Shown in pieces: positions 54,765 through 54,950 of a stretch of 64,000 bases of DNA. A program made the translations under genes and the position numbers. The stretch lies in contig OZ024741.1 in assembly GCA_964016885.1 (NCBI GenBank), positions 38,626,001-38,690,000 of the forward strand, read 5' to 3'. Under the pieces are notes generated by a model that was given only the letters and a program-made list of their open reading frames with translations, ran no database searches and was not told the DNA's origin. The number at the start of each line of letters is the position of its first letter. Position 1 is the stretch's first letter. This stretch comes from Eledone cirrhosa (Eukaryota).

Positions 54765-54950
54765 TAACGAAGGAAATATGGTAAGGAACCAGGTGGACCA
54801 TAACGCACCAAAGTACTCAATACTTAGGGTAGTAGAGTGGGTAATAGGAACGAGTAGGACCCCGACGGCTGAGCTCAAGCCGTTTCGACGGCTAATTCTG
54901 GACCGTCGAAACGGCTTGAGCTCGGCCGTCGGGGTCCTACTCGTTCCTAT
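54765..54950 (-). mobile_element. Family J short element, half-hammerhead fold-back
   Basis: 48-bp arms spanning 54844-54950 with an 11-nt loop; (TA)n both sides. Confidence 0.85.

Follow-up and report, generated by a model that had tools for sequence, protein, structure and literature searches.

The window analysed here, i.e., the whole stretch of 64,000 nt from Eledone cirrhosa (contig OZ024741.1, positions 38,626,001 to 38,690,000 of the forward strand), raises the question of how a genome comes to carry hairpins whose arms hold half of a hammerhead ribozyme. An original prediction, made from the sequence alone, proposed that nascent cDNA snaps back on the ribozyme's own hairpin and primes its own second strand. 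The five palindromes on which it was based are indeed present at 54844-54950, 30888-31012, 52869-52976, 61310-61373 and 3723-3768 (copies A to E, Table 1). As foreseen, every copy contains the helix II 3' strand, GAAA and helix III, and the 5' core strand is absent from all five; however, GUC/GGGG is missing from the right arm of the 61310 copy. The copies had also been treated as a single family, whereas those at 52869 and 3723 belong to families related to, and distinct from, that of copy A.

Hairpins in the window and their parent element

In the numbering used for the element, +1 is the A of AGTCC within loop II of the hammerhead. The orientation first given to 54765-54950 had to be reversed, as the sense strand of the element is the minus strand and the 80 nt to the left constitute its 3' tail. 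On the minus strand, copy A opens with (TA)n and a short arm in inverted orientation; the forward arm, which carries the hammerhead 3' half, and the 80-nt tail follow, and a second (TA)n closes it. Placement of the turn at stem II did not hold, since the turns cluster in loop II; the helix III turn in the 3723 copy is as claimed. Likewise, the junctions differ between copies, which supports their reading as independent events, but the supposedly different loops consist mostly of native loop-II sequence. The 12-nt repeats in copy B would represent re-copying at the template's 5' end. A tail-only fragment of the copy E family (3517-3600, plus strand), preceded by reiterated GGAGTACTCTG units, faces copy E across one (TA)n.

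Table 1. Arms of the five window hairpins, with window coordinates, strand and element positions
Feature	Window	Strand	Element	Remarks
Copy A, tail	54766..54846	-	+59..+139	Terminates at RT start site 1 against (TA)n
Copy A, remaining tailed arm	54847..54903	-	+2..+58	Loop II end (reaching +2), helix II 3' strand, GAAA, helix III, C17 (54864), stem I 3' strand
Copy A, tail-less arm	54903..54950	+	+14..+58	Loop II end at +14; overlaps tailed arm by 1 nt; terminates at RT start site 2 (TTCC|TAT) against (TA)n
Copy B, tailed arm	30809..30928	-	+20..+139	Loop II end at +20
Copy B, two additional 12-nt repeats	30929..30952	+	+1..+9 plus TTT	
Copy B, tail-less arm	30953..31012	+	+1..+58	Loop II end at +1, with the two extra repeats
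Copy C (related family), tailed arm	52797..52923	-		Terminates at GATC in loop II
Copy C, tail-less arm	52925..52978	+		Begins at GATC; a single base separates the arms
Copy D (diverged subfamily), tailed arm	61204..61341	-	+2..+139	Loop II end at +2
Copy D, tail-less arm	61344..61373	+	+7..+36	Loop II end at +7; (TA) end shorter than usual
Copy E (more distant family), tailed arm	3640..3740	-		Terminates in helix III
Copy E, tail-less arm	3736..3770	+		Helix III fold-back geometry; ACGGC (3736-3740) common to both arms

Longer copies elsewhere in the genome reveal the parent element. Locus L031 (4159-9011) holds a partial tandem (pLTR) with a unit of ~3.5 kb and an RT-GIY-YIG-type ORF, together with an inverted 5'-truncated copy and a one-sided tail, which is the layout of endonuclease-bearing (EN+) Penelope-like elements (PLEs). 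Although the ORF is broken in every copy read, the RT motifs FIQFDI and YRDD and an NVIYQ...YIG motif in L031/L033 place the RT ahead of a GIY-YIG endonuclease at the C terminus in a single ORF, as in EN+ PLEs; Pfam matched no family on the L033 ORF fragment, so the RT/GIY-YIG domain call rests on these motifs. There are 78 homologues of the ORF (up to ~720 aa), two of them labelled Octopus and Argonauta. Motifs of the Hydra clade (SDKT, IRWR, CNCPDGSIC, CNLC and CKH) are found as well, with CNCPDGSIC intact in L167 and L223 and its final C changed to F in L031, L033, L050 and L173; insertion into (TA)n is a further Hydra-clade trait. On motifs, target and published descriptions, the palindromes are placed as 5'-truncated insertions of a Hydra-type PLE. 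That the hairpins stem from a hammerhead-carrying PLE, as originally proposed, is thus borne out by ORF motifs, layout and intact hammerhead forms. A non-LTR retrozyme would consist of non-coding tandem units with a complete hammerhead each; the stubs are inverted half-ribozymes, and the tandem units of L142 likewise lack a hammerhead core.

Intact forms of the ribozyme read ATTACCCC-(T/C)TGA(G/T)AA-G..CGGCTA and combine, in type I order, stem I (ACCCC/GGGGU, 5 bp), the core (U/C)UGA(G/U)AA, helix II (G10.1-C11.1 plus 6 bp) with a 37-40-nt loop II, GAAA, a 6-bp helix III and GUC. An intact 5' core had been expected in some copy, and intact hammerheads do exist; however, the anticipated GGACCCC-CTGANGA-GACGG is absent, and none of the 72 intact matches (which include identical copies from overlapping loci) has the canonical CUGANGA, the core being U3-A8 in 38 and a C3/A8 mismatch in 34. 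The U3-A8 variant is reported for Schistosoma PLEs in the available text of PMC4209133. An alternative fold is 2.4-3.6 kcal/mol more stable than the predicted hammerhead when the latter is imposed as a constraint, and folding z-scores of the intact region (-0.5 to -1.1) are non-significant. The window holds only ribozyme halves, and no hammerhead appeared among the best 150 of its 279 Rfam matches, these being microRNA-type and similar, below gathering score. In L047, L051 and L005, the ribozyme region contains AGCCG twice and CGGCU twice, with the alternative fold slightly more stable than the predicted hammerhead; the duplication is a possible built-in switch.

The CTGAGAA lineage (L031, L033, L050 and L173) combines the C3/A8 ribozyme mismatch with the Cys-to-Phe change in the linker, yet is abundant and young-looking; L167 keeps the Cys. 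Spread of the youngest-looking subfamily with a mismatched core fits cleavage being dispensable, as it was found to be in vitro for PAc, the Poseidon element of Anolis carolinensis (PMC11167929).

Two fixed outer ends and a turn within loop II

A search of the 3.0-Gb genome with copy A returned many copies of 99-100% identity. Exact patterns recovered 11,199 tail-less and 20,802 tailed ends, far beyond chance given that reversed-pattern controls returned 0. The outer ends are fixed, at +58 for the inverted, tail-less arm and at +139 for the tailed arm, and the stubs, mostly ~190 bp, sit in (TA)n. As the tail runs on into the 5' UTR and ATG, both outer ends are internal to the RNA. A tail-less arm is joined to a tailed arm in 149/149 pairs, the sole exception called by script (L080) turning out, once re-read by eye, to carry a mutated tail. 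Pairs of two tailed arms are uncommon (L206, L305 and one further pair). The flanks of L009, L214 and L008 contain stubs of related hammerhead families in the same (TA)n tracts, and the neighbour of L214 starts at TTAGTT, at the same distance to helix II as +1.

Where the arms turn was read from the first 100 tail-less ends on contig C1 with an arm reaching +32, among which L185 and L186 are one duplicated locus. Of the 100 copies, 84 are short and 16 read through loop II; in 68, the tail-less arm stops between +1 and +10 of an Initiator-like (T/C)AGTC within the ~40-nt loop, against 0.3 expected for such a 10-nt window; breakpoints are thus far from uniform, as the original prediction required. 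For the 84 short copies, the ends of the two arms fall together at +1..+10 in 51 and inside helices in 6, with 21 mixed and 6 having no near partner (the class of L131 was corrected by eye). The edge is equally sharp genome-wide, where 21,436 arms span +1..+19 and 6,277 span -7..+12, i.e., ~70% of arms reaching +1 end within 7 nt upstream of it; a count of 2,198 for the hammerhead core pattern undercounts read-through because other helix II variants exist. Moreover, the two arms agree in their state, both running past +1 in 9 pairs and both ending at +1..+10 in 51, with mixed pairs at 0 (Fisher p=7e-11). The predicted ribozyme cleavage site at +41 was rejected as the turning point, as it shows no edge comparable to +1 and only 3/78 tailed arms start there.

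Around +1 the sequence reads TCAGTC/TTAGTC, which resembles the Drosophila Initiator consensus, and three subfamilies carry TATTTAAA at -29. Several features would mark +1 as a template end: (i) A/T runs of at least 4 in 12/78 paired short copies, (ii) reiteration of +1..+9 in L025, L289 and window copy B, and (iii) jumps that leave +1 or +3 for another part of the element in L142 (257-nt units), L039 and L198. Three tandem 257-nt units, from +1 to the ORF start and with a T run at each join, make up L142 223-900; these may stem from repeated jumping or from a small circular template. The junction of L191 contains a 48-nt pyrimidine-rich insert, without a match to the L031 unit, between arms both reaching +1.

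The base at -1 in one subfamily is T in 3088 arms (native), G in 653, C in 494 and A in 169. By eye, about half of 30 loci with G at -1 are unexplained by the opposite arm, and four insertions (L233, L238, L242/243 and L254) have G before +1 on both arms. Copying of the cap has been held responsible for untemplated G at 5' ends (PMC3287187, available text). The G excess is nonetheless modest, with C nearly as common and the other half or so of the G cases readable from the opposite arm. In stopped arms, the -1 base is often native (C in 8/12 for one subfamily, T in 45/71 for another), such that many templates extend to -1 or beyond and there is no clean A+1 start.

Probable separate synthesis of the two arms

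As a rule, the tail-less arm does not represent a copy of its tailed partner. In 263 arms, helix III is lost through a precise 23-nt skip; in 46 of the 70 such loci read, a script found this skip private to one arm (tailed only, 25; tail-less only, 21) with the partner intact. The other loci comprise 11 long arms, including L263 with the skip maybe in both arms, and 13 called without a partner, several of which by eye have a mutated but intact one. One further pair, known from the match list alone, has the skip on both strands. Furthermore, in 22/89 pairs it is the tail-less arm that extends further 5', by 10 nt or more and by as much as 1.4 kb (the script gave 24, two of which are ambiguous helix-III folds); the tailed arm leads in the 5' direction by such a margin in 8/89, and the arms do not overlap in 5 pairs. 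In L207, the tail-less arm holds the whole ribozyme and the tailed arm ~35 nt. Tail divergence is no higher in asymmetric than in symmetric copies (1.66% vs 1.73%, n=23 vs 54, p=0.80), which argues against slow decay of once-symmetric copies, though loss at the time of insertion would still be compatible. Where the arms meet, there is 0-6 nt of microhomology, an A/T run or a short insert templated by one of the arms, as is expected of microhomology-mediated end joining.

These data bear directly on the original proposal that one cDNA folds on the hairpin and self-primes the whole inverted arm, a scheme in which asymmetry would have to arise later, by deletion in the centre of the palindrome. 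Had a cDNA with the skip been copied by fold-back, both arms would show it, so the 25/70 loci with a skip in the tailed arm and an intact tail-less partner fit whole-arm snap-back poorly, as do tail-less arms that extend up to 1.4 kb beyond their partner, non-overlapping arms and the equal age of asymmetric and symmetric copies; the fixed end at +58 is also left unexplained. Self-priming has been proposed in the literature (PMC3846280, available text), and some copies do look the part, namely the 6/84 short copies turning inside helices (as opposed to 51/84 in loop II), with exact helix III or GAGCTC geometry in L072, L146 and L139, as well as window copy E. Both arms are of the same subfamily type in copies read by eye, templated inserts exist, and short snap-back inserts sit at the arm tips of L088, L188 and L193. 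The best candidate for a true fold-back looks to be L263, in which neither side has a tail and the join runs through CGGCT at the helix II 5' strand. As a general route, fold-back is thus largely refuted by the one-arm skips, and we consider it quite improbable; its role would be confined to a minority of copies and to junction inserts. Copying of a ready-made palindrome as a unit, be it a non-autonomous element or a DNA fold-back element, with centres decaying later, would suit the very uniform arms and outer ends and the one junction that window copy A has in common with L009. Nevertheless, junctions differ among near-identical young copies, stubs derive from all subfamilies, the arms form a continuum of lengths that extends into the ORF, up to 3 kb, and skips are private to one arm, rendering such an origin scarcely credible.

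We therefore turn to separate synthesis, for which the meaning of the loop II stop has to be weighed. Two cDNAs could have been made with the stop reflecting an RT block or a processed RNA end rather than a transcription start, through a sequence resembling a 3' splice site, a bound protein, U-tract slippage or cleavage. The stretch TTTTCATT(T/C)AG at -8..+2 would serve well as a splice acceptor, an intron end in D. virilis maps to the hammerhead according to the available text of PMC4209133, the -1 base is often native and the A/T runs suggest stuttering. Yet the arms retain the AG, and a spliced-RNA template was rejected because no upstream exon is common to the arms at +3. Several copies have an extra G on both arms, and re-copying and jumps begin at +1; a stochastic block should also yield mixed pairs, whereas the long or short state is common to both arms. 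We regard a block or processed end as unlikely on balance.

We favour instead, at a probability of roughly 0.65, the reading of each hairpin as a single abortive insertion of a Hydra-type PLE, with its arms copied separately and likely stopping at the RNA 5' end inside loop II. From the sequences and PAc biochemistry, the endonuclease would cut (TA)n and each target end would prime RT at +58 or +139, with both start sites probably on one RNA. If +1 is a capped transcription start, the arms would be strong-stop cDNAs, and the 5' ribozyme copy of the transcript would be left without its core strand. The cDNA ends, as the junctions indicate, would then be joined head to head via microhomology, A-tails and short snap-back inserts, long copies would arise by priming at the 3' copy of the two sites, and jumps at +1 would build tandem units. 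Use of one start site per target end on one RNA would lead to tail-less plus tailed pairs of concordant length. However, such concordance and pairing are equally expected under snap-back, L263 has fold-back geometry, one pair carries the skip in both arms, and the PAc start sites showed no strand preference in vitro (PMC11167929, available text). Core and downstream markers gave no clear mosaics from trans strand transfer between subfamilies in 44 intact copies, and thus lend no support to a +1 jump for ordinary long copies.

Extended to PLEs at large, the tentative proposal would be double-primed strong-stop synthesis by an RT dimer on one RNA, with two start sites and a promoter within loop II, although we hold this to be somewhat short of probable. 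The transcript would then begin with a coreless half-ribozyme and end with a whole one, in an LTR-like U3-R-U5 layout with jumps at the RNA 5' end rebuilding the pLTR, such that a single scheme would cover the origin of inverted pLTRs, of the tail on one side and of partial tandems. In LTR retroelements, minus-strand strong-stop DNA forms when RT begun near the 5' end runs off the RNA; there, the primer is a tRNA, whereas target DNA ends would be the primers here. In L1 twin priming, both target strands prime RT and the resulting inversions cover adjacent regions, unlike the present arms, which cover the same RNA region.

Comparison with known Penelope-like elements

Going by the available text of each source, the element resembles the Hydra clade (Craig et al. 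2021, PMC8557442) in (i) an RT followed by a GIY-YIG-type EN in one ORF, (ii) RW(K/R), DKT, CxCX5C, CxxC and CxH motifs, a (TA)n target and a pLTR hammerhead, and (iii) partial tandems, an inverted 5'-truncated copy and a one-sided tail. It differs in its unit length (~3.5 kb vs generally <3 kb), its tail (~80 nt vs 30-40), its non-canonical core (U3-A8 or C3/A8) with a 37-40-nt loop II, and its >20,000 ends, mostly in ~190-bp stubs. With PAc, whose protein is predicted to dimerise and whose RT, started at two internal sites that delimit the tail, extends both strands of the target (Frangieh et al. 2024, PMC11167929), it would share such paired internal sites, synthesis from both target strands and an AT-rich target; here, however, the sites lie in the 5' UTR, 79-81 nt apart, with one per target end. 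The available text of the PAc study offers no explanation of inverted pLTRs or of a 5' stop.

Head-to-head inverted pLTRs with a palindromic junction and an optional tail are also described for Adineta vaga and Drosophila virilis Penelope (PMC3846280, PMC2377424), along with TATA/Inr-like motifs in the pLTR or an internal Penelope promoter. In PMC3846280, such palindromes are interpreted as the outcome of self-priming with an antisense template, whereas the copies analysed here point to two sense-templated cDNAs. The inverted-pLTR architecture, the tail, ribozyme pairs on opposite strands, self-priming as a source of inverted pLTRs and the two start sites are therefore already published, at least in the portions available; what the present sequences would add are a test based on skips private to one arm, the agreement in length between arms and a candidate RNA start placed to the base inside loop II. 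Among the titles, opening abstract lines and passages covered, we found no description of two-ended strong-stop priming in PLEs, and the available text of PMC8557442 names the origin of PLE tandem and inverted repeats as an open question. This family amounts to tens of thousands of natural reaction products, which argue against the published self-priming reading, assign each of the start sites known from in vitro work to one target end and single out one base as the candidate RNA start.

The window holds other inverted repeats as well. A near-perfect inverted repeat with a (TA)-rich centre at 23787-23974, for which the top Rfam matches are microRNAs below threshold, is possibly the two ends of another element in one microsatellite. 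A further palindromic repeat family lies in the same kind of site at 42838-42950 and also beside L015 and L063.
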